Assembly: GCA_963757355.1 (NCBI GenBank)
Contig: CAVWRG010000003.1
Location: 261,120-325,119 of the forward strand
Direction of reading: 5' to 3'
Source: an uncultured Acidobacteriota bacterium
GTDB lineage: Bacteria > Acidobacteriota > Vicinamibacteria > Vicinamibacterales > CAVVIG01
Length of the DNA: 64,000 bases
In this document: positions 1-60,462 of the stretch, one piece after another
Layout: each line of letters begins with the position of its first letter
Numbering within the stretch: the first letter of the stretch is position 1
The notes under the pieces: generated by a model
The model's database searches: none
What the model was told of the DNA's origin: nothing
What the model saw: the letters and a program-made list of their open reading frames with translations, nothing else
Translations under genes and position numbers: made by a program

Positions 1-1552
1 CGTTCGGACGCCCAGACGATTCGATCGACTGCTGCGCGTTGATCACGAAGTTGAGCGCCACCTGCTCGATCTCCGTGAAGTTGGCGTAGACCGCGCGGGC
101 GGAGGAGATCTCGACGTCGAGCGCAATCGACAGGTTGTCGAGATCGCGGCGCCGAAGCTGGATCACTTCGGTGATCACGTCGCGCAGATCGATGAACGAC
201 GGCGGCTCGGATTGCTGGCCGCTGAACCGCGACAGGTTGCGGATGATCTCGCGGGCCCGCCCGCTCTGCGTCTTGACGAATGCGATTTCGTCGCGCGCCT
301 GCGCCGACAGATCTTCCTGCCGCTCCAGCAGTTCCGCCGTGCCGAGAATCGCCTGCAGAGGATTGTTCAGCTCGTGCGCGACGCCGGACACGAGGACGCC
401 GACGGCCGCGAGGCGCTCCTGCCGCACGACCTGTCGCTGCAGCGACTGCAGCGTCTCGCGCATTTTGCGCTCCTGCTCGATCTGATGATCGAGCGCCGCG
501 TGCGTCTCGCGCAGGTTGGCGGCCATCGTGATGAAACCGTCCTGAAGCTGCTCGAGCTCGAGGTTCGGCACCGGGTTCCGGGCGGGGGGCGACAGATCGC
601 CATCGGCAATGCGCTGCACGGCGATGCGGAGGCGATTGAGATCCCGGCTGAGGATCGCCGAGAGCCAGAGCGACACCGTCAGCACCGCGAAGATGGCGAG
701 CCCGCTGATAATCAGGTTGCGTCGTTTGAGATTGGCGATGCTCGAGGCGGCGACGTCAATTGGGATGCCGACGCTCAACAGCCACGGGCCGCGTTCCACG
801 ATCGCATTGCCATAGAACCGCTCGACGCCGTCCGGGCCAACGAGCGTTTGCGACCGCGCGACATCACGCGGCTGCATGGGGTTCGCGCTCATCGCGGTGC
901 CGATGAAGCGCTCCGGATCCCGGCTGCGCGCCAGCACGCGGCTCGCACCGTCGGCCAACGTGATCACGGATCCCTCCGGGAGCGGCACGCTGCCGAACAC
1001 CGTCTGCAGCCGCGCGAGATTGATGCCGAGTCCCAGCACACCGGAGATGCCGCCGTCCGGCCCCCACACCGGGTACCCGAGCACGATCGTCGACTTGCCG
1101 GACACCTGGCCTTTGAAGAGCTCGCTCACGACCGGCTTCCCCGTGGTCACGACGTCGTGGACGTATGCACGCGTCAGCTGTCCGAGCTGTGGCGAAACGG
1201 GCAGCCCGGATCCCTTCAGGGACCCGTGTGTATCGGTGAGCAGAATATTCAGGATGAGCGGCTGGTCGTGGATGATGCGGGCAAACAGGCGGTCGCACCG
1301 TGCGCGGTCGAGGGCCATCACATCCGGATGTTGCTCGAGCACCGACGCCATCAAGTCGAGGCCGCTCAGGTATTGATTCAAGTAGGCGGCCGCCGTCGAG
1401 GCGATCGAGGCGGCTTGATCACGGACGTCGTTCGCACGCTCGAGCCGCGTCCGCTGCGAGGCCCACATCGCGGCGACCGCGAACGGCAGCAGGAGGACGC
1501 CGGTCGCGACGAGCACCTGGCGACGAATGGGCTGGCCGTTGAAGATTCGCAA
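1..1552 (-). CDS. sensor histidine kinase (partial; C-terminal part runs off the left edge)
   Basis: Not in the ORF track because there is no stop in the window. The reverse-strand frame from TTG at 1552 stays open to position 1. It shows an N-terminal TM (VLVATGVLLLPFAVAAMW), a sensor region of about 250 aa, a second TM, a HAMP-like linker and the H-box SGVAHELNNPLQAILGTAELL. GC3 is high. Confidence 0.8.
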   Translation of the reverse strand, partial: MRIFNGQPIRRQVLVATGVLLLPFAVAAMWASQRTRLERANDVRDQAASIASTAAAYLNQYLSGLDLMASVLEQHPDVMALDRARCDRLFARIIHDQPLILNILLTDTHGSLKGSGLPVSPQLGQLTRAYVHDVVTTGKPVVSELFKGQVSGKSTIVLGYPVWGPDGGISGVLGLGINLARLQTVFGSVPLPEGSVITLADGASRVLARSRDPERFIGTAMSANPMQPRDVARSQTLVGPDGVERFYGNAIVERGPWLLSVGIPIDVAASSIANLKRRNLIISGLAIFAVLTVSLWLSAILSRDLNRLRIAVQRIADGDLSPPARNPVPNLELEQLQDGFITMAANLRETHAALDHQIEQERKMRETLQSLQRQVVRQERLAAVGVLVSGVAHELNNPLQAILGTAELLERQEDLSAQARDEIAFVKTQSGRAREIIRNLSRFSGQQSEPPSFIDLRDVITEVIQLRRRDLDNLSIALDVEISSARAVYANFTEIEQVALNFVINAQQSIESSGRPN

Positions 1553-1570
1553 GGATCCAGTGATTTTAGC

Positions 1571-2242
1571 TTAGACCAGCGGGTCGGGCACGCCCGCTTC
1601 ACTGAATCCTTTCGCTCGCAGCAGACAGCTGTCGCAGCGCCCGCACGGGCGGCCGGACGGCAACGGATCGTAACAGCTATGGGTCAGCCCGTAATCGAGG
1701 CCCAAGTCGAGTCCGCGGCGAATGATCTCGGCCTTGCTGAGCGAAATGAGCGGCGTGTGGATGTGGAACCGCGCGCCTTCGATCCCCGCGCGCGTGGCCA
1801 CGGCCGCCAGCAATTCGAACGCACTGATGAACGCGGGGCGGCAGTCGGGATAGCCCGAATAGTCGAGCGCGTTGACGCCGATCACGATGTCGTGCGCGCC
1901 GAGCGTTTCCGCCCAGCCGAGGGCGAGCGACAGGAAGACGGTGTTCCGCGCCGGCACGTAGGTGGAGGGAATGCCGGCGTCCACGGCGGCCACATCGCGA
2001 TCGCGCGGCACCGCATCATCCGACGTCAACGACGAGCCGCCGATGCCGCGCAGGTCCACGGAGAGCTCGAGATGCCGCTCGACGTCGAGGGCCTGCGCGA
2101 CGGCGCGCGCAGCGTCGACCTCGCAGGCGTGGCGCTGGCCGTACTGCACGGTGAGCGCGTACAGCGAAAAGCGCTGCGCCTTGGCGATCGCTGCGGCGGT
2201 GTACGAGTCGAGACCGCCACTCAGGAGGACTACTGCACGCAT
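1571..2242 (-). CDS. queC: 7-cyano-7-deazaguanine synthase
   Basis: Has LLSGGLDS (PP-loop) and a C-terminal Cys cluster [17 protein letters not shown]; 223 aa. Confidence 0.95.
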
Positions 2243-2245
2243 TGA

Positions 2246-2365
2246 GTGAATTGGTAACTTGGTGAATTGGTAATTTTACGCACGACGCGGTCGCCGAATC
2301 CTTCTTCCATTCGCCTTATCCACTCACCAACTCACCAATTTACCAATTTACCAATTTACCAATTA
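2246..2365. repeat. inverted low-complexity word repeat (GGTGAATTGG / CCAATTTACC arms) between queE and queC
   Basis: The left arm (2246-2276, gtgaattggtaacttggtgaattggtaattt) is roughly complementary to the right arm (2320-2365, ccactcaccaactcaccaatttaccaatttaccaatttaccaatta). The right arm includes the queE stop codon. Confidence 0.8.
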
Positions 2366-3004
2366 CACGCCCCTGGTGGTGGGTGACCAAATGTATTTGT
2401 GCAGCTGCAACTGCACACGGACGGGAAGATGGTCCGCCAGCACCCATTCCGACAGCGATCGCGCATCGAGCACGCCGTGCACCGGGGACATCAGCACCTC
2501 GGCGGCGCGCGTCGCGAGATCGTGGCGCGCGATCACGTCGCGCGCGAACTCGTAGTCCGCACGATCCTGCACGACGAACTTCACTTCGTCGTGCGGCGCG
2601 AGGCGCGCGAGATTCGCCCACTCGTTCTTGTCCGCTTCCCCGCTGCCGGGACACTTGACGTCCACGATCTTCACGACACCCGCCGGCACGCGATCGATCG
2701 GCCGGTGACCGCCGGTCTCCAGCAGCACGGTTCGGCCGTCCTGCATCAGCCGGTCCATCAGCGCGTAAACATCCTCCTGCAGCAGCGGCTCGCCGCCGGT
2801 AATCTCGACGAGCGGACACTGATACTGTGCGACGGTGTCGACGATGTCGGCGACCGAGCGTTTGTGGCCTTCGTGGAAGGCATACGGCGTGTCGCACCAC
2901 GAGCAGCGCAGATCGCAGGCCGTCAGCCGCACGAACACACACGGCCGTCCGGCGCGGGTGGACTCTCCCTGGATCGAGTAGAAGATCTCGTTGACGGTCA
3001 GCAT
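2363..3004 (-). CDS. queE: 7-carboxy-7-deazaguanine synthase (radical SAM)
   Basis: N-terminus EIFYSIQGEST, CxxxCxxC-like radical SAM cluster (CDLRCSWCDTPYA); 213 aa. Confidence 0.95.
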   Translation of the reverse strand: MLTVNEIFYSIQGESTRAGRPCVFVRLTACDLRCSWCDTPYAFHEGHKRSVADIVDTVAQYQCPLVEITGGEPLLQEDVYALMDRLMQDGRTVLLETGGHRPIDRVPAGVVKIVDVKCPGSGEADKNEWANLARLAPHDEVKFVVQDRADYEFARDVIARHDLATRAAEVLMSPVHGVLDARSLSEWVLADHLPVRVQLQLHKYIWSPTTRGV

Positions 3005-3021
3005 CCGTCTTTCATTATCCT

Positions 3022-3360
3022 ATGGACATGGCGAAACCGACCTTCTACTGGAAACCCACTTGAACGACCTGCAAAAACGCCAGAAGTTATCTGGACACGG
3101 CGCACGTCGCAGTACACGAAGTCGACATCAACAAAGAGCCACCGTCGCGACAGTTTCTCGAGCAGCACATCGACGCGGATCACTTCCTCGACTACGTGAG
3201 CACGCGGAGTCCCGTCTTCAAGGAGCGCCCGCTGCCCCGGTCGAAGAAGGAAGCCATCGACCTCATGATGGAAAACGCAAACCTCATCAGGCGGCCGATC
3301 CTCATCCAGGGCTCAACCGTGATTTTCGGGTTCGATAAAGACGCGTACAGTGAGCTCTAA
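3022..3360 (+). CDS. ArsC/Spx/YffB-family thiol-redox protein with in-frame TGA (candidate selenocysteine) at 3061-3063
   Basis: My own translation gives MDMAKPTFYWKPT-[TGA]-TTCKNARSYLD...NANLIRRPILIQGSTVIFGFDKDAYSEL. The TGA falls exactly where this family has the first Cys of its CxxC motif (compare NCDTCKKARRWL in YffB or SCTSCRKAR in Spx). There is no other stop up to TAA at 3358-3360. The ORF track misses the gene. Confidence 0.6.
3078..3099 (+). promoter_or_regulatory. candidate bacterial SECIS-like hairpin downstream of the TGA
   Basis: Stem ccaga(3080-3084)/tctgg(3090-3094) with loop AGUUA containing G-U, plus 2 extra bp (3078-3079 with 3098-3099) across a 3-nt bulge. The loop starts 22 nt after the UGA. 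The stem is short, so the call is weak. Confidence 0.3.
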
Positions 3361-4399
3361 CCTGCGCATCGGCACGTCGGGTTGGAACTATCCGTCTGGC
3401 CGAGGGACGTGGAACGGCGTGTTCTATCCGCCGCCACGGCGGCGCCCGAAAGGATTCGACGAGCTCGCCTTCTACGCCGAGCACTTCGACACGGTCGAGA
3501 TCAACTCGACGTTCTACGGCCAGCCGCGCGCCGACGTCGCGCGGACGTGGGCCGAGCGCACGCCGCCCGCATTCGAATTCTCGGTGAAGCTCTATCAGAA
3601 GTTCACGCATCCCAAGATGTACTCGGAGCGCGTGGCGCGTACGCTGCCGCCGGACGCCCGCGGCGACGCGAGTCTGGTCGGCATGCTTGCGGCGCCGAAC
3701 TCGGCTGATCTCGACGAGTTTCGGCGCGGCATCGATCCACTGGCGTCGAGCGGCAAGCTGGGCGCGCTGCTCGCGCAGTTTCCGCCGAGTTTCAAGGATG
3801 CGCCGGCGTCGCGCGAATACCTCGCCGGCCTGCTGCGCGCGTTCGCCGGATACGCCGTGGCGGTGGAGCTCCGTCACCGCAGCTGGAGCGACGGCATCGG
3901 CAACACGTTGACGCTGCTGAACGAATTCGGTGCGGCCTGGGTGCAGATCGATGAGCCGAAATTCCAGTTCTCCATCCGCCAGAACCATCTGCCCAACGTG
4001 AAGGGCTTTTACTACATGCGGCTGCACGGCAGGAATGCCGCCGCGTGGTGGCGCCACGACAAGGCCGAAGACCGCTACGACTACCTCTATTCGGCCAGCG
4101 AGCTGAAGGAGTTTGCCGACACCGCGGATGCGGCGCGGCACCTGGTGAAGAAGACCTATCTCTAAAACACGAACAATCACTTCTCCGCGAAGTCGGTGGC
4201 GAACGCGGCGATGATCAAGCAGCAGCTCGGCGAGCCGGCGACCGGCGAGTACCCTCGGGAATTCGCCGAGCGCTACCCGGAAATCGCCTCCGCTCTCACG
4301 ATCGCGTCCGGCGCGGGGGCGTCCGCTATTCCCTCACGTACATCCTCCGGATCAGATCGCCTTTTTGAAGCTGCGCCGGCACATCCGCGCCGGAAATAA
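3350..4399 (+). pseudogene. DUF72 (UPF0759/YecE-like) gene interrupted by in-frame TAA at 4163-4165
   Basis: The track ORF 3350-4165 (GTSGWNYPSGRGTWNGVFYP..., DTVEINSTFYGQP) stops at TAA. The same frame continues as NTNNHFSAKSVANAAMIKQQLGEPATGEYPREFAERYPEIA, which matches the conserved DUF72 C-terminus (NNH..G.AV.NA..L). Track ORF 4196-4399 is in the same frame. Confidence 0.55.
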
Positions 4400-4856
4400 T
4401 CCGGCCGAACACCGCGTACCTGCCGTTCAAGTCGGGCCGATCCGCGAGCGTCACGTAGATCTGACTGTCGGCCGCAGCCGGGTTGCCCAGGTGTGCCATG
4501 CCGACGGCGCCCTTCGTGTGCGGATGTTTCTTCGACATCTCCGCCGCGCCGATGGGCGCGCCGCTCGACGCCGCCTCGCCCCGGCCCCACTCGCTTTCCT
4601 GGGCGAGATCGCGGGATCGAGGATCACCCCATTGCACGACGAACCCCGGCAGGGCGCGGTGGACACGCTGGCCATCGTAAAATCCGCGCTTCACCAGGGC
4701 CATGATGTGTGCGACGGTCTGTGGTGCGTCGGCGGGGTACATCTCGAACGCGAACGTGCCCTTCGTCGTATCGACCACCACGACGGGAGCGGCGTTCTGC
4801 GCCGGAGCGGCCGTCGCCGCGGCGATCGCGATCAGCAGCGCGCAGCCGAGCCTCAC
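4326..4856 (-). CDS. secreted cyclophilin-type peptidyl-prolyl cis-trans isomerase
   Basis: Signal peptide LGCALLIAIAAATAAPAQ; FYDGQRVHRALPGFVVQWGDP and YAVFGRII motifs. The GTG at 4856 overlaps the nth stop (GTGA); an alternative ATG lies at 4895. Confidence 0.85.
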   Translation of the reverse strand: MRLGCALLIAIAAATAAPAQNAAPVVVVDTTKGTFAFEMYPADAPQTVAHIMALVKRGFYDGQRVHRALPGFVVQWGDPRSRDLAQESEWGRGEAASSGAPIGAAEMSKKHPHTKGAVGMAHLGNPAAADSQIYVTLADRPDLNGRYAVFGRIISGADVPAQLQKGDLIRRMYVRE

Positions 4857-6555: not shown

Positions 6556-6625
6556 CACAAAGGACACAATGGACACAAAGGAAACCTCTACTGGCTTTAC
6601 CTTGGTGTCCTTGGTGTCCTCTGTG
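6556..6625. repeat. hairpin of CAC(A/G)(A/G)AGG words after the BMC operon
   Basis: Arm cacaaaggacacaatggacacaaagg (6556-6581) pairs with ccttggtgtccttggtgtcctctgtg (6600-6625), with an 18-nt loop. Confidence 0.8.
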
Positions 6626-6662
6626 TTGAATCAGCGCGTCGTTCACCAGAAAGCGCGCGGCT

Positions 6663-6908
6663 TCAGTGTCCGTACGACTGGCAGAACCCGCAGTGGTTGC
6701 AGCGCACCGCCGGCTCGATCAAGCACGCACCGTCAGTGTCGCCGCCGGATGCCAGGGGAAGCAGCCCGTGGCTGGCGTGCAGCCGGCAGGCATCCTGTCC
6801 CGGCGAAGGCGCAGCCGCCGAGGCGGGCGACCCGGCCTGGCGGGCGATCGCGTCACGCACCATCGCGCGGAGCTCCTGCTCAGAGACTTCCATCGAATTC
6901 CACGTCAT
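6663..6908 (-). CDS. small Cys/His-rich protein with N-terminal encapsulation-peptide-like helix
   Basis: 81 aa (76 if it starts at ATG 6893). It has helix SEQELRAMVRDAIARQ, a Pro/Ala/Ser linker and a C-terminal C-x7-C-x2-C-x2-C (ACLIEPAVRCNHCGFCQSYGH). GC3 is high. It overlaps the 3' end of the preceding BMC-P gene. Confidence 0.6.
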   Translation of the reverse strand: MTWNSMEVSEQELRAMVRDAIARQAGSPASAAAPSPGQDACRLHASHGLLPLASGGDTDGACLIEPAVRCNHCGFCQSYGH

Positions 6909-7158
6909 CGATGATCCCGATGATCGCGGCGTCCACGGGCGCCGCTTTCCGGCCCAGCGCCTCTCCAGCCGCGCGACCCTCGAGGACGATCAGGACTTTT
7001 TCGTGCACGCCAGCGCCGACGCCGTCCACCGCGAGCAACGCCACACCGCGCGGCGTGTCGTCCATATTCAGCGGCTGCACCAGCAACAGCTTGGCGCCCT
7101 CGAACTTCTTGTGCTTCTGCGTCGCGACGACGGTCCCCACGACTCGGCCAATCTGCAT
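6880..7158 (-). CDS. BMC vertex pentamer protein (BMC-P, EutN/CcmL family), paralog 1
   Basis: MQIGRVVGTVVATQK...LLLVQP...AVDGVGAGVHEKVLIV...VDAAIIGIID; 92 aa. Confidence 0.9.
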   Translation of the reverse strand: MQIGRVVGTVVATQKHKKFEGAKLLLVQPLNMDDTPRGVALLAVDGVGAGVHEKVLIVLEGRAAGEALGRKAAPVDAAIIGIIDDVEFDGSL

Positions 7159-7265
7159 CTGGTTATCTGGTTATCTAGTGATCTGGTTATCTGGTTATCT
7201 GGTTATTTGGTTATCTGGTTTCAATGATTCAATAAATGACCATATAACCAGATAACGAGATGACC
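7159..7265. repeat. octamer (CTGGTTAT) tandem array forming a hairpin between two BMC-P genes
   Basis: About eight copies of ctggttat/ctagtgat lie at 7159-7220. A complementary arm accatataaccagataacgagatgacc lies at 7239-7265. Confidence 0.8.
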
Positions 7266-7269
7266 ACAT

Positions 7270-7542
7270 TTACGTGTCTGCGAGGTTCCAGTGATCGACG
7301 ATGCCGACGATGCCCGCGTCGACCGGCGGCTCGGCCGGGTAAAACGGAAAGCTCGCTTCCTTGCCGCGCACGAAGAAGACGTTCTCGCCAATGCCCGCGC
7401 CGACGGCGTCGACGGCGACGATCGGCCGTCCGGCCGGCTCGCCCGCGGGTGTGAGCGGCTGCACGACGAGCAGCTTGATGCCGGCAAGTTGCGCGTCTTT
7501 CTGCGTGGCGACGACGTCGCCAATCACACGGGCGAGGTGCAT
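7270..7542 (-). CDS. BMC vertex pentamer protein (BMC-P), paralog 2
   Basis: MHLARVIGDVVATQK...LLVVQP...AVDAVGAGIGENVFFV...VDAGIVGIVD. ATG at 7542 has GGAG 10 nt upstream. The track extension to 7620 would overlap paralog 3. Confidence 0.88.
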   Translation of the reverse strand: MHLARVIGDVVATQKDAQLAGIKLLVVQPLTPAGEPAGRPIVAVDAVGAGIGENVFFVRGKEASFPFYPAEPPVDAGIVGIVDHWNLADT

Positions 7543-7564
7543 GGGACGACGCTCCAAGGGGTCA

Positions 7565-7843
7565 TCAGCGCTTCTCTTCCTGGAGATCCACGGTGTCGAT
7601 GATGCCGACGACCGCGGCATCCACCGGACAATCCTTCAATCCGGACGCCATCCGCGCCGAGCTGCCGCTGACGATCAGCACCGTCTCGCCGACGCCGGCA
7701 TCGACGGTGTCGACGGCGACCAGATAATGGCCTTCCGGCGTGCCGCGCGGATCCATCGGCCGCGCAATGAGCAGCTTACTGCTGACGAGGCGCGGATCCT
7801 TCCTCGTCGCAACGATGGTTCCTACGATTTTCGCCAGCAGCAT
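7565..7843 (-). CDS. BMC vertex pentamer protein (BMC-P), paralog 3
   Basis: MLLAKIVGTIVATRK...LLIARP...AVDTVDAGVGETVLIV...VDAAVVGIID; 92 aa. Confidence 0.9.
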   Translation of the reverse strand: MLLAKIVGTIVATRKDPRLVSSKLLIARPMDPRGTPEGHYLVAVDTVDAGVGETVLIVSGSSARMASGLKDCPVDAAVVGIIDTVDLQEEKR

Positions 7844-7910
7844 TCAGATTTTTCGATTTTCGATTGCAGAGCTTCAATCGTCGCCCGTCCATCGAGCGGA
7901 GATTTCAGCG

Positions 7911-8204
7911 CTAGGCCTTCGACGTCGTCGCCTTGCCGATCGGGAGCGCGTCCTCGAGATTGGCGTGCGGGCGCGGAATCACATGGACCGAGACGAGCTC
8001 GCCGACCCGGCGCGCCGCCGCGGCGCCTGCGTCGGTGGCTGCCTTGACTGCCGCGACGTCGCCGCGAACGATCGCCGTGACGTAGCCCGCGCCGATCTTC
8101 TCCCAGCCGACGAGCGTGACCTTCGCGGCCTTCACCATGGCGTCGGCAGCCTCGATCATCGCGACCAGGCCCTTCGTTTCGATCATCCCGAGTGCCTCAC
8201 CCAT
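7911..8204 (-). CDS. BMC hexamer shell protein (BMC-H, PduA/EutM/CcmK-like)
   Basis: [26 protein letters not shown]...[17 protein letters not shown]...[16 protein letters not shown] lies 6 nt upstream of the ATG. Confidence 0.93.
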
Positions 8205-8293
8205 TACTGACTCCTTGAATATCGCTGATGGCTAATAGCTCATGGACGAGAGATCGAACGCCTTGGCCAGGAGCCGTCAGCCGCTTGGGCATC

Positions 8294-8330
8294 CCCGAGC
8301 CCGAGCCCGGAGCCCGAGCCCTGAGCCCTG
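8294..8330. repeat. tandem CCGAGC/CTGAGC word run between the aldolase and BMC-H genes
   Basis: Sequence cccgagcccgagcccggagcccgagccctgagccctg. I found no obvious complementary arm. Confidence 0.6.
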
Positions 8331-8331
8331 A

Positions 8332-9255
8332 CTATCGTAAGTACCGAATCGCGTCCTCGATGAGCGCGGAGAGCTCGCGGTATGTTAACCGAATTTCTCC
8401 CTCCGCCTCCGCCGAAGACCTCGGCGAGTCGCCGCCGCGCGTGAGCTCCAGCACGAGACGCTGGCCGCCGCCGGAGGGCGCGCGCACCACCTGGCACGTC
8501 GCATCCTCGCTCTCGCGTGGCGCCGGCGCGTCAGACGGACCCCGGCCGCCCGGCGCAGGCGACGGGCCAGCGCCCGGGCCTTCCGCGGGGTCGGCGCAAA
8601 TCGGCGCCGGTGCTTTGATGCCGTACGAGCCCCGCAGCCCCTGTAAACGCGTGACCTCCTCGCGCGAGAGGACGTTCTCGCGGCCAAGCGTGCGCGCCAC
8701 GAGACTGATCTTCGCGAAGTGCTCGATCGTCTCCATCTTGTAGTACGCGCCGAAGAGATCGCTGCCGACCGTCAGCGCGCCATGGTTGGCCAGCAGCATC
8801 CCGTCGTGCGCCTTGATGTATTTGCGGACCGCTTCGGGCAGCTCGTTGGTCGAGGGCGTGGCGTACTCGGCGATCGGCACGCTGCCGAGCGTCGTCAACA
8901 CCTCCGCCAGGACGGCGCGATCGAGTGGAATGCCAGCCACCGCGAAGCCGGTTGCGGTCGGCGGATGCGCGTGCACCACGGCGTTCACATCGGGCCGCTG
9001 CCGATACACTTCGAGGTGCATCAGGGTTTCCGATGATGGATCGCGGTCGCCCTGCAGCTTGCGCCCCTCGAGGTCCGTGATGCACATCATGTCGGGGGTC
9101 ATGAACCCCTTGCACACGCTCTTCGGCGTCATCAGAAGGCGGGCCGCGTCGAGCCGCACGCTGATGTTGCCGTCGTTCGACGCGGTGTACCCGCGCGCGT
9201 ACATTCGGCGGCCGACTTCGACGATGTCGGCGCGGAGCGAGGACTCAGTGCTCAT
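8332..9255 (-). CDS. class II aldolase/adducin-family enzyme with long C-terminal extension ending in an encapsulation-peptide-like helix
   Basis: Core motifs NDGNISVR, SSETLMHLEVY, VVHAHPPTATGF and LLANHGALTVG. A Pro/Gly/Ala-rich tail of about 95 aa follows, ending in the amphipathic helix LTYRELSALIEDAIRYLR. Confidence 0.9.
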   Translation of the reverse strand: MSTESSLRADIVEVGRRMYARGYTASNDGNISVRLDAARLLMTPKSVCKGFMTPDMMCITDLEGRKLQGDRDPSSETLMHLEVYRQRPDVNAVVHAHPPTATGFAVAGIPLDRAVLAEVLTTLGSVPIAEYATPSTNELPEAVRKYIKAHDGMLLANHGALTVGSDLFGAYYKMETIEHFAKISLVARTLGRENVLSREEVTRLQGLRGSYGIKAPAPICADPAEGPGAGPSPAPGGRGPSDAPAPRESEDATCQVVRAPSGGGQRLVLELTRGGDSPRSSAEAEGEIRLTYRELSALIEDAIRYLR

Positions 9256-20842: not shown

Positions 20843-21895
20843 CTACGTGATCAACATCGCGTCGCCATAACTGTAAAAGCGGTAGCGCGCCGCGATGGCG
20901 GCTTGATACGCGGCCAGGACACGCTCTCGGCCGGCGAACGCGGACACCAGCATCAGCAGCGACGATTGCGGCACGTGAAAGTTCGTCAGCAGCCCGCCGA
21001 TGACGCGAAACTCGAACCCCGGATAGATGAAGAGATCCGTGGCGCCCGCACCGGCCACGACCTCGTCGTCGTGCGCGCAAGCCACCGCCTCCAGCGTCCG
21101 CGTCGTCGTCGTCCCCACGGCGATGATGCGCCGCCCCTCGCGGCGCGCGCGCGTGATGGCTGCCGCCGCCACGCCGCCAATCTCGTAGTGTTCGCTGTCG
21201 AGGGTGTGATCTTCCACGCGCTCGGCCCGCACCGGCTGAAACGTGCCGTAGCCGACGTGCAGCGTGATCTCTACGACTTCGATGCCGCGTGCCTCGAGGG
21301 CGCGTATCAGCGCGGCGTTGAAGTGGAGGCCGGCGGTCGGAGCAGCGACCGAGCCGCGGGCCCGTGCGAAGACGGTCTGGTAGCGCTCGCGGTCGGCCCC
21401 ACGATCCGCACGCTTGATGTACGGCGGCAGCGGCACGTGGCCAATCGCGTCGATCGCCTCGTCCAGCGAACCGCCATCGCCGGTCCAAAGGCGGACGAGG
21501 CGGCGGCCGTAAAATCGCCGCTCGAGCACGTGCCCGTGGATCCGGCGCTCGCCGGATCCGCCTTCGAACAGCAGTTCGGCGCCCGGCTTCAACTTCTGGC
21601 CGGGGTGCATCAGCGCTTCCCAATGCTGATCGTCCACCCGGCGAATCAAGAGACACTCGACCGCTCCACCGCTGGGCACGCGGTGGCCGATCAGACGCGC
21701 GGGAAATACGCGGGTGTTGTTGACAACGATCACATCGTCGGAGCGCAGGAGAGCGGGCAGCGCGTTGACCGTCGTGTGCGCCAGGCGGCCGGTGTCCCGG
21801 TCGAGATGCAGCAGGCGCGAGGCGCCGCGCTCGGCGGCCGGCTCCTGCGCAATGAGATCGGCGGGAAGATCGAAGTCGAAATCGTGGACGTCCAT
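20843..21895 (-). CDS. queA: S-adenosylmethionine:tRNA ribosyltransferase-isomerase
   Basis: FDFDLPADLIAQEP, SRLL, VNNTRVFPARL, GSVAAPTAGLHF, TNFHVPQSSLLMLVSAF. ATG at 21895. Confidence 0.93.
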   Translation of the reverse strand: MDVHDFDFDLPADLIAQEPAAERGASRLLHLDRDTGRLAHTTVNALPALLRSDDVIVVNNTRVFPARLIGHRVPSGGAVECLLIRRVDDQHWEALMHPGQKLKPGAELLFEGGSGERRIHGHVLERRFYGRRLVRLWTGDGGSLDEAIDAIGHVPLPPYIKRADRGADRERYQTVFARARGSVAAPTAGLHFNAALIRALEARGIEVVEITLHVGYGTFQPVRAERVEDHTLDSEHYEIGGVAAAAITRARREGRRIIAVGTTTTRTLEAVACAHDDEVVAGAGATDLFIYPGFEFRVIGGLLTNFHVPQSSLLMLVSAFAGRERVLAAYQAAIAARYRFYSYGDAMLIT

Positions 21896-21979
21896 GCCCG
21901 CGATCGATCTTAGAGCAGTTAGCTCAGCGAATGGTGTTGGCCGCGGCATCGCTGGTCACGCTATTGCAGCTGCACGTCA

Positions 21980-54877: not shown

Positions 54878-57079
54878 TTAGCGCCGGACGTAGAGCTGCA
54901 GGCGCGGGAACGCAAACGTCCCGGCCGCATCGTCGATCACGTTGATCTGGCAGGTGTACAGGCCCGGCGGGAGCGACGCCGCCGGGACGTCGAACTGAAA
55001 CACGGCCGACTTGCGATCAGCCGCCGAGAGCGATGTCGCCTCGACCACAGGCGTTTCGAACGCGCGGACGCGGCCGCGGAAAAAAGCGATGCTCGTCATC
55101 ACCTTGATGGGCTCAGCCGGATTGGCGCCCGCCGCGTGCGCCGGATCGTACAGCTCGTAGTAGAAATACAGATGCTGCGCGCCTGAGACCACGTGCGTGA
55201 CGTTCGGCACGAGCTCGCGGCCATCGCGCGCCAGCGGGTTGCGATCGTTCTTCTTGACGCCCGCCTGCAGCTGCGTGCCGACCACGATCGAGCTGAGCTT
55301 GACGCTCTCGCTTTTCACATCCGGTTTCAAGTCGGGTACGACCAGATCGGTCTCGTACGAGCCGAGCGTCCCGTTCTGATTTTCGCGAACGACGACTTTC
55401 ACATGGTAGCGTCCGGCCGGCATCTCGAGGCCGGTCTGGTACTGGATCGTCTTGCGTTTGAGCTCGTCGGCCTGATCGGCGGCGAGCTTCACCGTGTCGC
55501 GAACACGTCCGATCGGCCGGTGGTGGTCGTCGCTGACGAGACCGAGCACGTCGATTGACGCGTGATTCTTGTCGGAGGTCCGCGTAATCGGCACCTGATA
55601 GCCGGGGACCACCACGGAGAGCGGCACGTAATACCGATTGTCCGCCAGCCGGAAATACGCCGCGGAAACGTACGCGCTCAGATCCGTCGCGGACAGATCG
55701 GACAACAACTGATCCTGCAGCTGCTGCTCGCGGTCGTCTTTCGTCGAGTGCGCGAAATCGCGCGGCGCGTAGTAGCCGGATCGGTACTCCAGCTTCACGT
55801 CCGTCCGCGCCACCCGCACGTTGATCCGCCGGAAGCGCCCATCCCGAGCCGGATTCGTGCTGCTGAAGCCGAGCACGTAGTAGGCGGAGGTGTCGGCGAC
55901 GACGCGGTCGAAGACCTGACCGAACGAATTGGAATCGAAGAAGGCCTTCCCGCCGGTGTCCTCGGCCATCGTCGACAACGTGTCCTGCGACCCCGCGAGG
56001 CTGTCGACCTGCGAGCGGGTCGACGCGCCGGAGAACGCCGACGTGCCGCGAGTGCTCGCCTGCGTGGCATCGCCGCCGGGCACGAGCGCCACCAGCCCGC
56101 GCATGTCCGCGGCATAGATGGAGACGTTTGCGCGCGTGGCGCGATCCACGGTGCGGCGGAGCTCCACCTGATTGTCCTGGCCGCTCTGGCTCATGCCGCT
56201 GCTGAAATAGATGACCGACTTTTTCTGCTCGATCCCCGCAAGCGCATCGGACAAGGTTTGCAGCGCGTCGAGCCGGCGATCGGTGTTGAAGATATTGAAT
56301 TCCGTGTCGTCTGGCGTGAACGCGGTGCCGTTGTCCGGTGTCCCTTCCGAATCGCCGGTCGTGCCCTCCTCGAAGCCCTGGGCATTGGCGCCGCCGTACG
56401 AATCGATCGCCGCGTCGAGCAGCGCGCGATCCGCCGTGAAGTCCTGCGCGACCTGCAGCGACGTCGAAAACGACGTGACGGCGATCACGTCCGACGGCGA
56501 CAGCTTCTGATCGACGTAGTCGTGCGCCGCTTTCACCGCTCGCTGCAGCTCCTCGGGCTGCATGGAGCTGAGGTCGAAGAAGAGCACGATCAGACGACGG
56601 CCGTGCATATCGACGATCGGTGGAGCCGGCACGGCTGCGTTAGGCGTCGCTGCCGCCGGCTTCTTGGGCAAGACCACCCGCGGCTCATCGGCAGGCGCCG
56701 GCACGTCCGTGCGATCGAGCTCCTCGAAGTCGAAGCTGGTGATCGTCTGCGGCTTGCCGTCTTCGGTGATGGAGAAGTCGCGCTGCGTCAATCCGCGGAC
56801 GACCGCCCCGCTCTTGTCGCGCACGACGACGTTCACGGTGACGAGCTCGGTGCCGGAGTGAAACACCGGCGCCTGGGACGCCGCGGGGGCCTGCGCGCGC
56901 GGCACGCTGACACACAGAATCGCCAGCAACGCCACGAGCGATCGCCGAACCCGAGAGCGTCTCGAGGATCTCCGCACCCAGCGAGCATCTGGACCACGGA
57001 GCACCGATCGGTTCCTGATCAGATTTGTGCTCCGTTTCCTCAGTGGTGGAGAGCGCTTGACGAGCTCGGTCGATTGCAT
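54878..57079 (-). CDS. VWA-domain protein of the acidobacterial VWFA-related type
   Basis: N-terminal module TELVTVNVVVRDKSGAVVRGLTQRDFSITEDGKPQTI, VWA region LIVLFFDLSSM, long C-terminal beta-rich region; 733 aa. Confidence 0.85.
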   Translation of the reverse strand: MQSTELVKRSPPLRKRSTNLIRNRSVLRGPDARWVRRSSRRSRVRRSLVALLAILCVSVPRAQAPAASQAPVFHSGTELVTVNVVVRDKSGAVVRGLTQRDFSITEDGKPQTITSFDFEELDRTDVPAPADEPRVVLPKKPAAATPNAAVPAPPIVDMHGRRLIVLFFDLSSMQPEELQRAVKAAHDYVDQKLSPSDVIAVTSFSTSLQVAQDFTADRALLDAAIDSYGGANAQGFEEGTTGDSEGTPDNGTAFTPDDTEFNIFNTDRRLDALQTLSDALAGIEQKKSVIYFSSGMSQSGQDNQVELRRTVDRATRANVSIYAADMRGLVALVPGGDATQASTRGTSAFSGASTRSQVDSLAGSQDTLSTMAEDTGGKAFFDSNSFGQVFDRVVADTSAYYVLGFSSTNPARDGRFRRINVRVARTDVKLEYRSGYYAPRDFAHSTKDDREQQLQDQLLSDLSATDLSAYVSAAYFRLADNRYYVPLSVVVPGYQVPITRTSDKNHASIDVLGLVSDDHHRPIGRVRDTVKLAADQADELKRKTIQYQTGLEMPAGRYHVKVVVRENQNGTLGSYETDLVVPDLKPDVKSESVKLSSIVVGTQLQAGVKKNDRNPLARDGRELVPNVTHVVSGAQHLYFYYELYDPAHAAGANPAEPIKVMTSIAFFRGRVRAFETPVVEATSLSAADRKSAVFQFDVPAASLPPGLYTCQINVIDDAAGTFAFPRLQLYVRR

Positions 57080-57081
57080 GA

Positions 57082-60000
57082 TCAGAATCGAAGCCGCGTC
57101 AGAATCTGCACGCGGCGCATCGGGCGCGCCGCGGTGACCTGGCCGAACGTCGGCGAATTGAAGACCGTATCGATCGACGCGTATTGGACGGTGTTCAGGA
57201 TGTTGTTCGCCAATATTTGCACCGACAGATTGCGCGTCGGTCCCAGGCTGATATTTCGCGTCAACCCGGCGTTCAGCATGGACGTCCCCGGTCCGATGAT
57301 CGTATTGCGCCCCGCCGACCCGAAAGTACCAGCCAGCGGAAGGGAGAATGCGGCGGTGTTGAAAAACTTGAGCACCGTGGGGTCGCTCAGGGTAATCGGC
57401 TGGCCGTTGTAATTCGCCCGCAGCGTCCCGTCAGTGCCGCGGCTGACGTCGCTGACGCTCGCCAGGATGGTCGCGGTGAACGGCGTCCCCGACGCGAGCT
57501 GCACGCCGCCGTTGATCTGCCAATCGCCGAGCAGCTCCGCCGCCATGCCGCTCGTGAACCAGCGCTTCTTCGCGCCGAACGGCAGCTCGTACGTGAAATT
57601 GCCCGTGAACTGATGGCGCTGATCGAAGCTCGAGAGCCCGCGCTCAGCGGCCAGATCCTGATCGTTCTGCGCCACGACACTGCCGGATCCGCCAATCGAG
57701 GAGGCATCGTCGGTCGATTTCGACAGCGTGTAAGACGCGCTTCCGCCGATCCCATTGGTCAGACGCCGCCTGAACCGCAGGGTGAGCGCGTTCATGATCG
57801 AGTCGGCTCCAGACGACTCCCAGATGTACGGCGGCAGGTTTGGATCCAGCAGACCCGTGGGCGTGCGGTTGGGCGCGCGTAGAAGGTCGAGGTCCGAGCC
57901 CTTCGTGCCCGTGTAGCCGGCGCCGACAGTGTAAATCCTCGCGATGTCGTGCTGCACGTCGAAATTCCAGATCTGGACGTAGCCGAGGCGGTAGTTCGGA
58001 TCGACACCGTACGTATTCGTCGTCGCGCTCGACGGAGGTGTCGTGAGCACCGACTCGAGCGGCGCAGCGGTGACGCGGTTCGACAAGACCGTCGTCGTGA
58101 CGTCAAACGGCGGCTGGTTCGCGAGCTGCTGCGCGATCGATTGATACACGCTCGCGCTGTAGTTGATGCCGTACCCGGTTCGCACCGTCGTCGTCGGCGT
58201 CGCCTTCCACGCCAGGCCGACGCGCGGCGCAAAGGCGCCGCGATCGGGCCGCACGATCGAATCGGGCAGCGCGCCCGAAAACGGACTGGTGCCTCCGGCG
58301 ACAACCGGTACCGCCGCGGTGAACGTCGACGGCGCGTCGAGTGTCGCCAGGCGATTGTCCGCTTCGGAAACCGGCGAATAGTACTCCCAGCGAAGGCCGG
58401 CGTTGATCGTCAGCGATGCGCGCGCGCGCCAGTCGTCCTGGATGAACAGGTCGCCGGTGTGTTGACGGAATTGATCGGTTTGTCCGGATTGAAAAGTCGA
58501 CTGCTGCGGCAGCCCCAGCAGGAAGTCGCCGAGAGGCTGGCCGGTATACAGCCCGGTGAACACGAACGAGCCTCGGGCGGTCGGATCCGACCGGCTGTTG
58601 GCGCGAATGTCGCGAAAGTCGCCCCCGAATCGGACCGTATGCGCGCCGTGTGACTTCACAATCGAATCGCCGATCGAAGCCGTTTGATCCGTGCGCATCG
58701 AAGGGCTGATGTCGCGGAGGCTTTGAAAGCCGCCGATCGTTAAGCTCGGCGCACCCCAGTCGAATGGATCGGTCGCGATGCCCTGGATTCCGGCGTCCCC
58801 CGCGATGTTCTGGTTGAACGCGAAGAGATTCTGCGTCTCCGCGCGGTTGCGATTGAAGTCGGCGTGGATCGAATGGAACAGACCCGCCTTCGTGAAGCTG
58901 TAGCCGACCGGAATGTCCCACGCGCTGATCGTGCTCTCGCCCCCGAGTGTGGCGAATGGGTTCTGGCTGGTCGTCGCCGAGTGGCGGTAGTGGATGCCGA
59001 TGTTCAGGTTCGATACGCCGGCGCGCCCGCCACCGCCGCGGCCGCCGCCGCGCGCGCCGCCGAGGCCCCGCTGCCCGCGCTGCGGGACGGCGCCGAAGGT
59101 GTGCACGAGGCGCACATTCACGTCGTCGATATTGCTCGTCGTCGTCGAGATCGTGTGAAGGTTCTTGAGACCCGCCTGATTCGCCTGTGGAAACAGATTC
59201 AGCAGCGCCTTCGCCGCCGGATCGATTTGCGAGGAGGGAATGATCGGGCCGCCAAGCGCCGTCAGGTCGCCGTTCCGCTCGGCGTCGGTCGGCACAGTGG
59301 AATATGTGTCGTACGGGTTACGCGAGTGGTTGCCCGTGTAGTTCAGGAAGAAGAACGTGCGCGCGCTGTCGAACACTTTGGGAATCCCGATCGGTCCGCC
59401 CAACGTTGCACCGAAGCGCTGCTGGAAGTACTGCTGCTTGGCTGTCGGCTGACCGTTCAGCGAGACGGGTCCTGTGTCGAGCGCCGACGTGTCGAAGCTC
59501 TGATACGCCGACCCGCGGATCTGATTCGCGCCGCGGCCGCGGCCGCCGAACGGGCCGGGTCCGATGCCCGCGAGCCCGCGCCCGCCGCCAAATCCACCGG
59601 GACCACCAGGGGCGCCTGGACCGCCGGGACCGAATTCTCCGGCTTGTCCGCCGGGGACATCGGTGCCGGGCCCACCGAACCGCTCGCCGAATCCTCCGGG
59701 GCCGAAAAACTGATCGCCCGAGGCGACCGTGCCGATCGACGTCACCGACTCGCTGGAGGCGTCAGGAGAAAAACCGGGAGGCAGCAACGATTGCAAGGCT
59801 GTGTCGCCGCCGGTATCCTCGGAGCGCACGAGGGCGGAATCGTCGGCCATCAGCGCGAGGCTTTGAAACTGCTGCGGCGTTTGCCGTGCCCCGCCGCGTC
59901 CCTGCCCTCGTCCTCCTCCAGCGCGCACGGCCGTGCCGGGCGCCGCCGCCGCGCCGCCGGGCGAAGGCGCGGTGGGCGCGGCTGGCGACGCAGGCGACGT

Positions 60001-60462
60001 TGGCGTTGGCGCCGCCGCGGGCGCGCGCGACGCGAGCGTCATGGTGAGATCGATCCGCTGTTCACAGCTCGCCTGATCGATGGTCACCTCGCGCACGACC
60101 GGCGCAAACGCGGTCAGCGCCGCCTTCAATCGATATTGCCCGGGTCCGGGACTCTTCAGCGCATAGGCGCCGTCTACAGACGACGAGGTGAGATCGACCG
60201 GTTGATTGTCATCGGTCGTCAGCGACACGGCGACGCCCGGCAGCGGCACGCGGCCAGCGGTGATGGTGCCGGCCACCGCGCACCCTTGCGCCGCCTGCGC
60301 CTGCACGCCGGCGTGCAGCGACAGTGAAGCAGAGAGGACACCCCAGCCGGCAAAAATCGCGAAGCGCCGCAGATGAAATCGAAGCGCGCGTGGCACGTAC
60401 TCTGGAGAATACCCGACGGTCCTCCGCGCGAGGTTTGACAAAATCGTGACACGACTTAGCAC
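57082..60462 (-). CDS. outer-membrane TonB-dependent-receptor-like protein with CarboxypepD_reg N-terminal domain
   Basis: The N-terminus carries VAGTITAGRVPLPGVAVSL...DGAYAL...PGQYRL. Gly/Pro/Arg-rich linkers follow, then a beta-barrel region of about 800 aa ending in ...RRVQILTRLRF (terminal aromatic). Confidence 0.85.
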   Translation of the reverse strand: MLSRVTILSNLARRTVGYSPEYVPRALRFHLRRFAIFAGWGVLSASLSLHAGVQAQAAQGCAVAGTITAGRVPLPGVAVSLTTDDNQPVDLTSSSVDGAYALKSPGPGQYRLKAALTAFAPVVREVTIDQASCEQRIDLTMTLASRAPAAAPTPTSPASPAAPTAPSPGGAAAAPGTAVRAGGGRGQGRGGARQTPQQFQSLALMADDSALVRSEDTGGDTALQSLLPPGFSPDASSESVTSIGTVASGDQFFGPGGFGERFGGPGTDVPGGQAGEFGPGGPGAPGGPGGFGGGRGLAGIGPGPFGGRGRGANQIRGSAYQSFDTSALDTGPVSLNGQPTAKQQYFQQRFGATLGGPIGIPKVFDSARTFFFLNYTGNHSRNPYDTYSTVPTDAERNGDLTALGGPIIPSSQIDPAAKALLNLFPQANQAGLKNLHTISTTTSNIDDVNVRLVHTFGAVPQRGQRGLGGARGGGRGGGGRAGVSNLNIGIHYRHSATTSQNPFATLGGESTISAWDIPVGYSFTKAGLFHSIHADFNRNRAETQNLFAFNQNIAGDAGIQGIATDPFDWGAPSLTIGGFQSLRDISPSMRTDQTASIGDSIVKSHGAHTVRFGGDFRDIRANSRSDPTARGSFVFTGLYTGQPLGDFLLGLPQQSTFQSGQTDQFRQHTGDLFIQDDWRARASLTINAGLRWEYYSPVSEADNRLATLDAPSTFTAAVPVVAGGTSPFSGALPDSIVRPDRGAFAPRVGLAWKATPTTTVRTGYGINYSASVYQSIAQQLANQPPFDVTTTVLSNRVTAAPLESVLTTPPSSATTNTYGVDPNYRLGYVQIWNFDVQHDIARIYTVGAGYTGTKGSDLDLLRAPNRTPTGLLDPNLPPYIWESSGADSIMNALTLRFRRRLTNGIGGSASYTLSKSTDDASSIGGSGSVVAQNDQDLAAERGLSSFDQRHQFTGNFTYELPFGAKKRWFTSGMAAELLGDWQINGGVQLASGTPFTATILASVSDVSRGTDGTLRANYNGQPITLSDPTVLKFFNTAAFSLPLAGTFGSAGRNTIIGPGTSMLNAGLTRNISLGPTRNLSVQILANNILNTVQYASIDTVFNSPTFGQVTAARPMRRVQILTRLRF

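Follow-up and report, generated by a model that had tools for sequence, protein, structure and literature searches.

The stretch of DNA analysed in the present study (64 kb in length, hereafter the window) originates from an uncultured bacterium of the Vicinamibacterales, and near its beginning, between queE and a gene for a DUF72 protein, it carries a small reading frame of the ArsC/Spx/YffB superfamily in which a TGA codon occupies the position of the first Cys of the CxxC redox motif. The coordinates of the locus are collected in Table 1. The frame is opened by two ATG codons (3022 and 3028), runs through MDMAKPTFYWKPT (M-D-M-A-K-P-T-F-Y-W-K-P-T) to the TGA, and continues thereafter for 98 sense codons (TTCKNARSYLD...DKDAYSEL) up to a TAA codon. 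An in-frame TGA at the first CxxC Cys, followed by 98 codons to the TAA at 3358, had been described in a first-pass annotation made from the letters of the DNA, and the same frame was reproduced here from the sequence. The interpretation favored in the present study, to which a probability of about 0.88 is assigned on the basis of comparative sequence analysis, is that positions 3028–3360 constitute a genuine and intact gene encoding a selenoprotein, with selenocysteine (Sec) specified by the TGA.

Table 1 Features of the selenoprotein locus and of its immediate neighbors (positions are those of the window)
Feature	Positions	Strand	Details
ArsC/Spx-like selenoprotein coding sequence (predicted), 110 aa	3028..3360	+	MAKPTFYWKPT-U-TTCKNARS...SEL; stop TAA 3358-3360
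In-frame TGA, read as Sec (U)	3061..3063	+	First UxxC position, N-terminus of helix 1
TGC, second (resolving) Cys of UxxC	3070..3072	+	Cys in 77/77 TGA forms examined
Putative bacterial SECIS (selenocysteine insertion sequence), apical hairpin	3080..3094	+	CCAGA 3080-3084 pairs with UCUGG 3090-3094; loop AGUUA 3085-3089
Possible lower stem, in the window only	3065..3109	+	3065-3068 with 3106-3109; 3070-3072 with 3102-3104
queE (7-carboxy-7-deazaguanine synthase), divergent neighbor	2363..3004	-	TIGR04349, 273 bits (cutoff 300)
queC, adjoins queE	1571..2242	-	
DUF72 gene, downstream	3350..4165	+	PF01904, 171.8 bits; GTG start

Two scans of contigs representing one genome per species yielded 111 distinct orthologous loci, all of them from Vicinamibacterales, Vicinamibacteria or otherwise labelled Acidobacteriota metagenome-assembled genomes. 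In the alignment of these homologs, a comparison already suggested in the first-pass annotation, the column in question contained TGA in 107 loci and TGC in four, within the common context K-P-T/S-TGA-T-T-C-K/R. The amino-acid identity between TGA forms, compared pairwise, ranged from 0.60 to 0.98, and the retention of the TGA in 107/111 loci lies far beyond chance. The first scan covered the best 80 related loci, with a top match of 88% amino-acid identity; the nearest genome found (L341, CAWBJQ010000003.1, MFD05513.bin.2.57), which shows 94.4% DNA identity to positions 1537–4850 of the window (3.3 kb), was absent from it, so this first list is incomplete. When Cys forms were used as seeds for the second scan, the loci recovered were again mostly TGA forms and included no new Cys form, which kept the sample of Cys forms small (nine).

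Protein-coding conservation was detected on both sides of the UGA. Among 77 TGA forms, the amino acids specified by the 11 codons located 5' of the TGA were conserved with variable third positions (Lys: AAG 53, AAA 24; Pro: CCG 41, CCC 35; Thr: ACC 43, ACG 17, ACT 15), and the codon at position −11 from the TGA was ATG in 72 of the 77 orthologs. Because the upstream codons evolve as coding and an ATG is found at −11 in this large part of the orthologs, translation is considered to start at 3028 and to pass through the TGA, with ATG 3022 being an in-frame alternative. So, of the two starts offered in the first-pass annotation (3022 or 3028), both of which lie in the correct frame, the latter is singled out by the orthologs; the distance of 17 nt given there between the start and the divergent queE holds for 3022 (3022 to 3004) and becomes 23 nt when counted from 3028. 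On the downstream side, many residues of the 98 codons were invariant, and the resolving Cys was encoded by TGC in 73 and by TGT in four of the 77 TGA forms, this Cys being invariant in the alignments of Cys forms as well. At the same time, 33 of the 55 genes called in the window end with TGA, more than with any other stop codon, and UGA is therefore not reassigned genome-wide.

Relatives of two classes were returned by the protein search. Full-length proteins of 108–118 aa, with 63–78% identity, formed the first class, and those that were aligned carried C-T-T-C at the motif, except for one (P0001), which has a Trp in the Sec column. The closest relatives, with 84–93% identity, formed the second class, and all of them were N-truncated calls of 82–89 aa beginning 3' of the TGA column, with annotators' internal starts (GTG or ATG) that vary between relatives. 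In the full-length homologs from metagenomes, the motif columns read C-T-T-C, and the Cys at the Sec column is specified by a genuine TGC or TGT codon. P0001 is a JGI protein corresponding to L363 (601-933) and L364 (72-404), and the possibility that its Trp reflects a TGG variant was rejected, as the DNA reads TGA and the gene caller translated this TGA as Trp. As this case illustrates, a selenoprotein can be concealed in a protein database under the guise of a "W" variant.

Shortly after the TGA, a hairpin with a G-U-containing loop had been reported at 3078–3099 by the first-pass annotation; the hairpin does exist, but its conserved part is narrower (3080–3094). The loop begins 21 nt past the TGA, with G3086 and U3087 located in it, so that the loop GU lies 23–24 nt past the UGA. 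The 57 nt from the TGA onward could be aligned gap-free in 76 sequences, and from this alignment RNAalifold retained a single helix, columns 20–24 with 30–34, which corresponds to 3080–3084/3090–3094. In this apical stem 99.7% of the cells were paired, and of the 109 distinct TGA forms all but one (108) had a perfect 5-bp stem. The loops of these 109 forms were AGUUU (78), AGUUA (19, the window included), AGGUU (6) and a few of the GGUC type, the second base of the loop being G in all 109 and the next base being U or G.

At the hairpin codons, the residues Ala, Arg, Ser and Leu vary little or not at all, and the codons used there were compared with the codon usage of the window genes. Counted from the TGA, Ala at codon +6 is GCC in 77/77 TGA forms (GCC makes up 34% of the Ala codons in window genes); Arg at +7 is AGA in 67 and AGG in 10, and CGN was never seen (AGA, 1.9% of Arg codons); Ser at +8 is AGT in 72/72 Ser codons (AGT, 3.7% of Ser codons); Phe/Tyr at +9 is TTT in 51, TAT in 14 and TTC in nine (TTT, 19% of Phe codons; TAT, 28% of Tyr codons); and Leu at +10 is CTG in 76/77 (CTG, 45% of Leu codons). 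Under window codon usage, the probability of GCC AGA AGT TAT CTG given the residues ARSYL is 3e-5. Synonymous sites are thus frozen over codons +6 to +10, and the hairpin is maintained by codons that this genome uses very rarely (AGA, AGT, TTT). The closing A-U pair is changed to G-C in 10 sequences and to G-U in two further sequences; in nine of the 10 G-C variants, both partners changed synonymously (AGA to AGG, TTT to TTC), and in L064 the partner codon is CTC. These closing-pair variants represent about one compensatory event together with two wobble intermediates.

The E. coli fdhF SECIS, which is said to be the best-characterised bacterial SECIS, is similar in that the hairpin is located within the coding sequence just 3' of the UGA and presents a G followed by a U in the apical loop at a fixed distance. 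Counted from the U of the UGA, the loop GU is found here at +26/+27, whereas it is reportedly at +23/+24 in fdhF; moreover, no bulged U was seen here, the stem is short (5 bp) and a lower stem is not conserved, and the role of this hairpin as a SECIS is a predicted one. An Rfam scan, performed with the whole window at the gathering threshold and with 2950–3400 at E <= 10, gave no match at the locus, which carries little weight as Rfam is without a general bacterial SECIS model. The geometry of the hairpin (5-nt loop, 5-bp stem, G[U/G], 21-nt spacing) lies within the limits described for bacterial SECIS elements (PMC13188914, section 5), namely, an apical loop of 3–9 nt with a G within its first two positions followed by G or U, a stem of >=4 bp and a UGA-loop distance of 16–37 nt.

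The behavior of the hairpin in orthologs without the TGA was followed in nine Cys forms (TGC or TGT), four of which came from genomes and five from metagenome contigs, situated in the same queC-queE context. Seven of the nine had three to four of the five stem pairs and loops without G[U/G], with N-A-K-T/A-Y-L as the typical sequence and not N-A-R-S-F-L; in total, the hairpin was lost or altered in eight of the nine. The Cys form of L016 (3034-3080) has an intact stem with the loop CGCUU, and that of L071 (3034-3080), which shares 91% identity with a TGA form, retains the hairpin as a whole. The hairpin thus goes with the TGA, as expected of a SECIS element. The nearest relatives of all four genome-derived Cys forms are TGA forms, so Sec and Cys were switched several times, and L071 (as well as L016) looks like a recent Sec-to-Cys change with the SECIS decaying. 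With these scattered Cys forms, one of which has kept the hairpin, the clade provides a clean series from nature in which the exchange of Sec for Cys and the decay of a SECIS can be studied.

SelA was found in Vicinamibacterales genomes when these were scanned for its pyridoxal-phosphate motif as written with GC-rich codons, and application of a Vicinamibacterales SelA as the query resulted in at least 80 loci, all from Acidobacteriota and mostly from Vicinamibacterales/Vicinamibacteria. When the 80 best entries of each list were compared, at least 18 assemblies contained both SelA and the gene under study, which was a TGA form in 16. Against TIGR00474 (cutoff 267.9), SelA from three of the latter (the assemblies of L002, L004 and L013) scored 524–547 bits, and L002 is the second-closest relative in the first scan. 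The Sec trait is therefore well supported in this lineage, from related assemblies rather than from the window's own genome. Note that in many loci of Actinomycetota and Proteobacteria recovered by the motif scan, tRNA-Sec was located in the same 8-kb stretch as selA; at the SelA loci of Vicinamibacteria (L203–L282), no selB, selD or tRNA-Sec was present within 4 kb on either side, unlike the E. coli selAB operon.

Several observations weigh against a Sec-encoding gene, both on the side of the RNA element and on the side of the decoding machinery. Covariation in the hairpin is modest, the 10 G-C variants belong to one clade and three stem pairs never vary; the main argument for the hairpin is the freezing of synonymous sites. 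The lower stem was considered as a part of the element and rejected, because only 68.8% of its cells were paired in the 76 sequences and RNAalifold drops it. The apical hairpin alone has a folding energy of −5.8 kcal/mol (mean −6.8 over TGA forms); the minimum-free-energy fold of 3061–3117 has −14.8 kcal/mol (z = −1.58), and the value of −7.5 kcal/mol or lower, which also belongs to the bacterial SECIS description in PMC13188914, is reached only with the non-conserved lower stem counted in. As to the machinery, of selA, selB, selD and the tRNA-Sec gene, which the first-pass annotation had named as the components to look for, SelA was present in the 16 TGA-form assemblies, but none of the four was found in the 64-kb window: ARAGORN gave tRNA-Met only, tblastn with E. 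coli SelA, SelB and SelD gave no match in the window or in the ortholog loci, and a Pfam scan of the 30 larger window ORFs (open reading frames) revealed no SelA, SelB or SelD domain. ARAGORN likewise detected no tRNA-Sec in the 80 ortholog loci and 80 SelA loci, and tblastn detected no SelB or SelD adjoining SelA in Vicinamibacterales loci, SelB, SelD and tRNA-Sec having not been sought elsewhere in the lineage. The co-occurrence with SelA comes from metagenome bins, with the two genes on different contigs, and concerns related species, not the window's own genome. Finally, the most likely role of the product, that of a selenol/thiol oxidoreductase, is one predicted from the motif and the fold.

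Other in-frame TGA codons followed by a similar hairpin were searched for in the window and in the SelA loci, and the target and three likely chance matches were the only hits; at the same time, the other candidate TGA-split ORF pairs in the window proved to be only consecutive same-frame genes, and no second selenoprotein gene was seen there.

For the profile searches, Cys was substituted for the stop in the window protein (112-aa product from ATG 3022). Pfam ArsC (PF03960) was matched with 47.6 bits (cutoff 24), and Glutaredoxin was also matched. The best NCBIfam match was the Spx/MgsR subfamily TIGR01617, with 69.9 bits against a cutoff of 75.05, and the cutoffs were also not reached for NF041106, "ArsC family (seleno)protein" (32.9 vs 85 bits), TIGR00014, ArsC (34.0 vs 106 bits), NF008107, YffB (33.5 vs 121 bits), and the Spx equivalog models (48 vs 123). 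TIGR01617 was the best-matching family for all of the 49 clade members, 44 of which matched NF041106 weakly (best E-value 5.8e-7). In the AlphaFold model of a 78%-identical Cys ortholog (pLDDT 91.7), a strand at residues 5–8 is followed by Cys12 just before the helix at 13–24, and Cys12 would accordingly occupy, as modelled, the classic redox position of the thioredoxin fold. Foldseek with this modelled ortholog gave TM values of 0.83 for YffB, 0.82 for ArsC-related proteins, 0.70–0.79 for Spx and 0.69 for E. coli ArsC, and the closest solved proteins by sequence were Spx (3l78, E = 1.5e-11; also 1z3e). The assignment to the ArsC/Spx/YffB family made in the first-pass annotation is thus in agreement with both the PF03960 match and the fold of the modelled ortholog.

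The best superposition was obtained with YffB (PA3664, 1rw1) and the uncharacterised ArsC-family-related 3gkx and 3fz4 (TM 0.83 and 0.82), which are also small stand-alone proteins of ~115 aa; the identity to these proteins is 25–31%, and none of them has been described with Sec. Glutaredoxin-coupled ArsC (R773/E. coli, TIGR00014, 1i9d) shares PF03960 and the position of the nucleophile after strand 1, and a Sec form of it is known, whereas the protein of the window scores far below the TIGR00014 cutoff, carries UxxC and not UxxS, has a TM value of 0.69 and lacks an ars operon context.

On these grounds the following course of expression and catalysis can be proposed. The mRNA hairpin 3080–3094 would act as a bacterial SECIS, recruiting SelB-GTP-Sec-tRNA(Sec) to the ribosome paused at the UGA, and Sec would be inserted at UGA 3061–3063 instead of termination. 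The resulting motif, U-T-T-C, would lie where helix 1 begins; within it, Sec14 (112-aa numbering) would attack the substrate and Cys17 would resolve the intermediate, giving a selenenylsulfide. The product, judged from its motif and fold, would be a thiol/selenol-disulfide oxidoreductase, and its partner is probably the co-transcribed DUF72 protein.

The TGA could be accounted for in other ways. If it were a true stop, the locus would encode a 13-residue leader peptide and an N-truncated protein made from an internal start, which is how public databases annotate it, with calls of 82–89 aa that start with GTG or ATG after the TGA. In the window, the earliest in-frame start codon 3' of the TGA is GTG 3196, which leaves 54 aa and removes strand 1, helix 1 and strand 2 from the product, in line with the earlier claim that no downstream start yields a complete domain; such a product would miss the redox motif and half of the fold. 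As the internal starts chosen by the annotators also differ among relatives, and the 11 codons preceding the TGA can be aligned with strand 1 in full-length Cys orthologs, this explanation is extremely improbable. A pseudogene produced by a TGC/TGT-to-TGA nonsense mutation, which had been the alternative offered in the first-pass annotation, or a base-calling error would require very little, as one base change turns TGC into TGA, and truncation of the gene by gene callers (82–89 aa in the nearest relatives) would fit with it. However, 107 genomes assembled independently of one another share this TGA, no further disabling mutations accompany it, purifying selection is evident on both sides, and the gene keeps its conserved synteny and overlaps its downstream neighbor, which reduces the likelihood of this explanation to nearly nil. 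When the two are weighed, the selenoprotein is preferred over the nonsense pseudogene, given the TGA in 107/111 loci, the coding-type evolution upstream of it, the conserved hairpin and the presence of SelA in TGA-form assemblies. It is also highly unlikely that the UGA is read as a standard amino acid (Cys, Trp or Gly) by a suppressor or a tRNA-Sec-like tRNA, e.g., an allo-tRNA or a SelC*-type tRNA-Cys. tRNA-Sec-like allo-tRNAs, possible nonsense suppressors, do occur in Acidobacteria, and a deltaproteobacterial Cys-tRNA mimics tRNA-Sec (PMC5389517). Nevertheless, the codon sits exactly in the column of the CxxC redox Cys, which is the typical position of Sec, the hairpin fits the SelB-type SECIS model, and SelA, which is specific to Sec-tRNA synthesis, is found in the same assemblies; besides, insertion of Cys via UGA would bring no benefit over TGC, yet the TGA is kept in 107/111 species.

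With a Sec-encoding gene accepted, its product could still be a Spx-like redox-sensing regulator that binds RNA polymerase, and not an enzyme. Spx/MgsR proteins (TIGR01617; B. subtilis Spx, 1z3e; S. mutans SMU.1142c, 3l78) are the closest relatives by sequence, in the profile search as well as among solved structures, and belong to the closest ones by structure; the CxxC spacing at the start of helix 1 and the STRS...F and LxRRPI motifs (STRS and RRP) are common to both. At the same time, the protein of the window differs from them in having Sec for the first Cys and in scoring just under the TIGR01617 cutoff and well below that of the Spx equivalog models, and its fold is matched no less closely by YffB and the ArsC-related protein. 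Gly52 of B. subtilis Spx, the contact with the alpha C-terminal domain of RNA polymerase, faces His of the window protein when the latter is aligned to 1z3e and 6ghb, and His or Arg in its relatives. B. subtilis Spx has 131 aa with a C-terminal tail, and Spx regulators are known from Firmicutes; here, the protein ends at 110–112 aa without the C-terminal extension, and the organism is not a Firmicute. A regulator of this type is therefore unlikely. Somewhat less likely still is the idea of a separately evolved third selenoprotein family of the ArsC superfamily, near-fixed in Vicinamibacterales, in which Sec, instead of belonging to a generic oxidoreductase, serves as the sensor of a Spx-like selenol redox switch or the protein as a dedicated redox partner of DUF72; we know of no characterised bacterial selenoprotein with a regulatory or partner-specific role.

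As for the surroundings of the selenoprotein gene, the gene order is histidine kinase, queC and queE (minus strand), this gene, DUF72, cyclophilin, HhH-GPD glycosylase and 2-hydroxyacid dehydrogenase. The DUF72 gene begins with a GTG located inside the end of the selenoprotein gene, so that the two share 11 nt (3350–3360), and because of this 11-nt overlap of start and stop the two genes are probably co-transcribed; the arrangement also suggests translational coupling of the selenoprotein with the DUF72 protein. Close spacing or overlap with DUF72 recurs in relatives (e.g., a 4-nt overlap in L365), and DUF72 adjoins the gene in the Cys-form loci L365 and L368 as well. A literature search on DUF72/YecE yielded no functional lead. 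Among the 80 related loci, queE is adjacent in 74, and DUF72 occurs in 76, where with a single exception it follows the gene directly, so the gene is found in conserved synteny in nearly every related genome examined (~74–76/80 loci) and the locus is a stable chromosomal one, not an island. The adjacency of queC-queE to an ArsC-like gene (~74/80 related genomes) has no obvious functional link.

The gene has a GC content of 55.8% against 66.0% for the window and a GC3 (GC at third codon positions) of 0.77 against ~0.85 in neighbor genes, with values of 0.53 and 0.37 at the first and second codon positions, respectively. The lower GC content relative to the neighbors, pointed out in the first-pass annotation, was thus confirmed; its cause lies mostly in the amino-acid composition together with the rare hairpin codons, and it need not mean foreign origin. 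Foreign origin was considered from the low GC content and rejected, since synteny is conserved and the deficit is located at the first two codon positions and in the codons of the hairpin.

Some further features of the window may be mentioned. The queuosine genes are split, with queC and queE lying by the selenoprotein gene and queA (20843-21949, -) 18 kb off. A microcompartment cluster occupies 7270-9255 (-) and consists of genes for EutN/CcmL vertex proteins (7270-7620 and 7565-7843), a BMC-domain shell protein (7911-8204) and a class II aldolase (8332-9255); EutN genes are also present near the Cys-form ortholog in L369. An ORF of 733 aa (54878-57079, -), located directly downstream of a TonB-dependent-receptor-like barrel gene (57082-60462), had no Pfam match at E <= 1e-5, and an ORF of 228 aa (6569-7255, +) of uncertain coding status had no Pfam match either.

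Selenoproteins of the ArsC type with a UxxC motif have been known since 2008, and both the mechanism and the protein type are ordinary for the field. "Arsenate reductase 2" (cd03032, UxxC) was described in the Global Ocean Sampling (GOS) marine selenoproteome with 42 sequences (Zhang and Gladyshev 2008; PMC2398784) and is now named "Arsenate reductase-like protein", NF041106 (PMC13188914), while an "Arsenate reductase" selenoprotein of the UxxS type was reported in the Sargasso Sea survey (PMC1088965). BSepDB (PMC13326102) comprises 57,630 bacterial selenoproteins in 111 families, and its BLAST-page example is an arsenate reductase-like protein queried for selenoprotein homologs; the clade may already be listed there. 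The GOS family and the present clade share the ArsC/Spx thioredoxin fold, a UxxC motif with Sec first, Cys homologs and identification by computation only. The clade differs in falling outside the NF041106 model (32.9 vs 85 bits), in its origin from soil Vicinamibacterales rather than from marine samples, and in its fixed synteny with queC-queE and DUF72. Since the clade misses the NF041106 cutoff widely, it probably represents a Cys/Sec switch separate from that family, possibly with independent acquisition of Sec.

For the understanding of Sec decoding and of the kinds of proteins that use Sec, this gene brings no change, and it would not surprise specialists; its value is for annotation and ecology. 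In public annotation, the protein appears as an N-truncated "ArsC/Spx/MgsR family protein" (NCBI, one Vicinamibacterales bacterium) or as "arsenate reductase". Its recognition as a selenoprotein corrects a systematic annotation error, as the NCBI and JGI entries are truncated, and adds a clade missed by the current NCBIfam model for ArsC-like selenoproteins. In soil, Vicinamibacterales (Acidobacteria subdivision 6) rank with the most common bacteria; as a selenoprotein gene, the gene would show the use of selenium in this soil lineage, and together with SelA it can serve as a marker for the trait.

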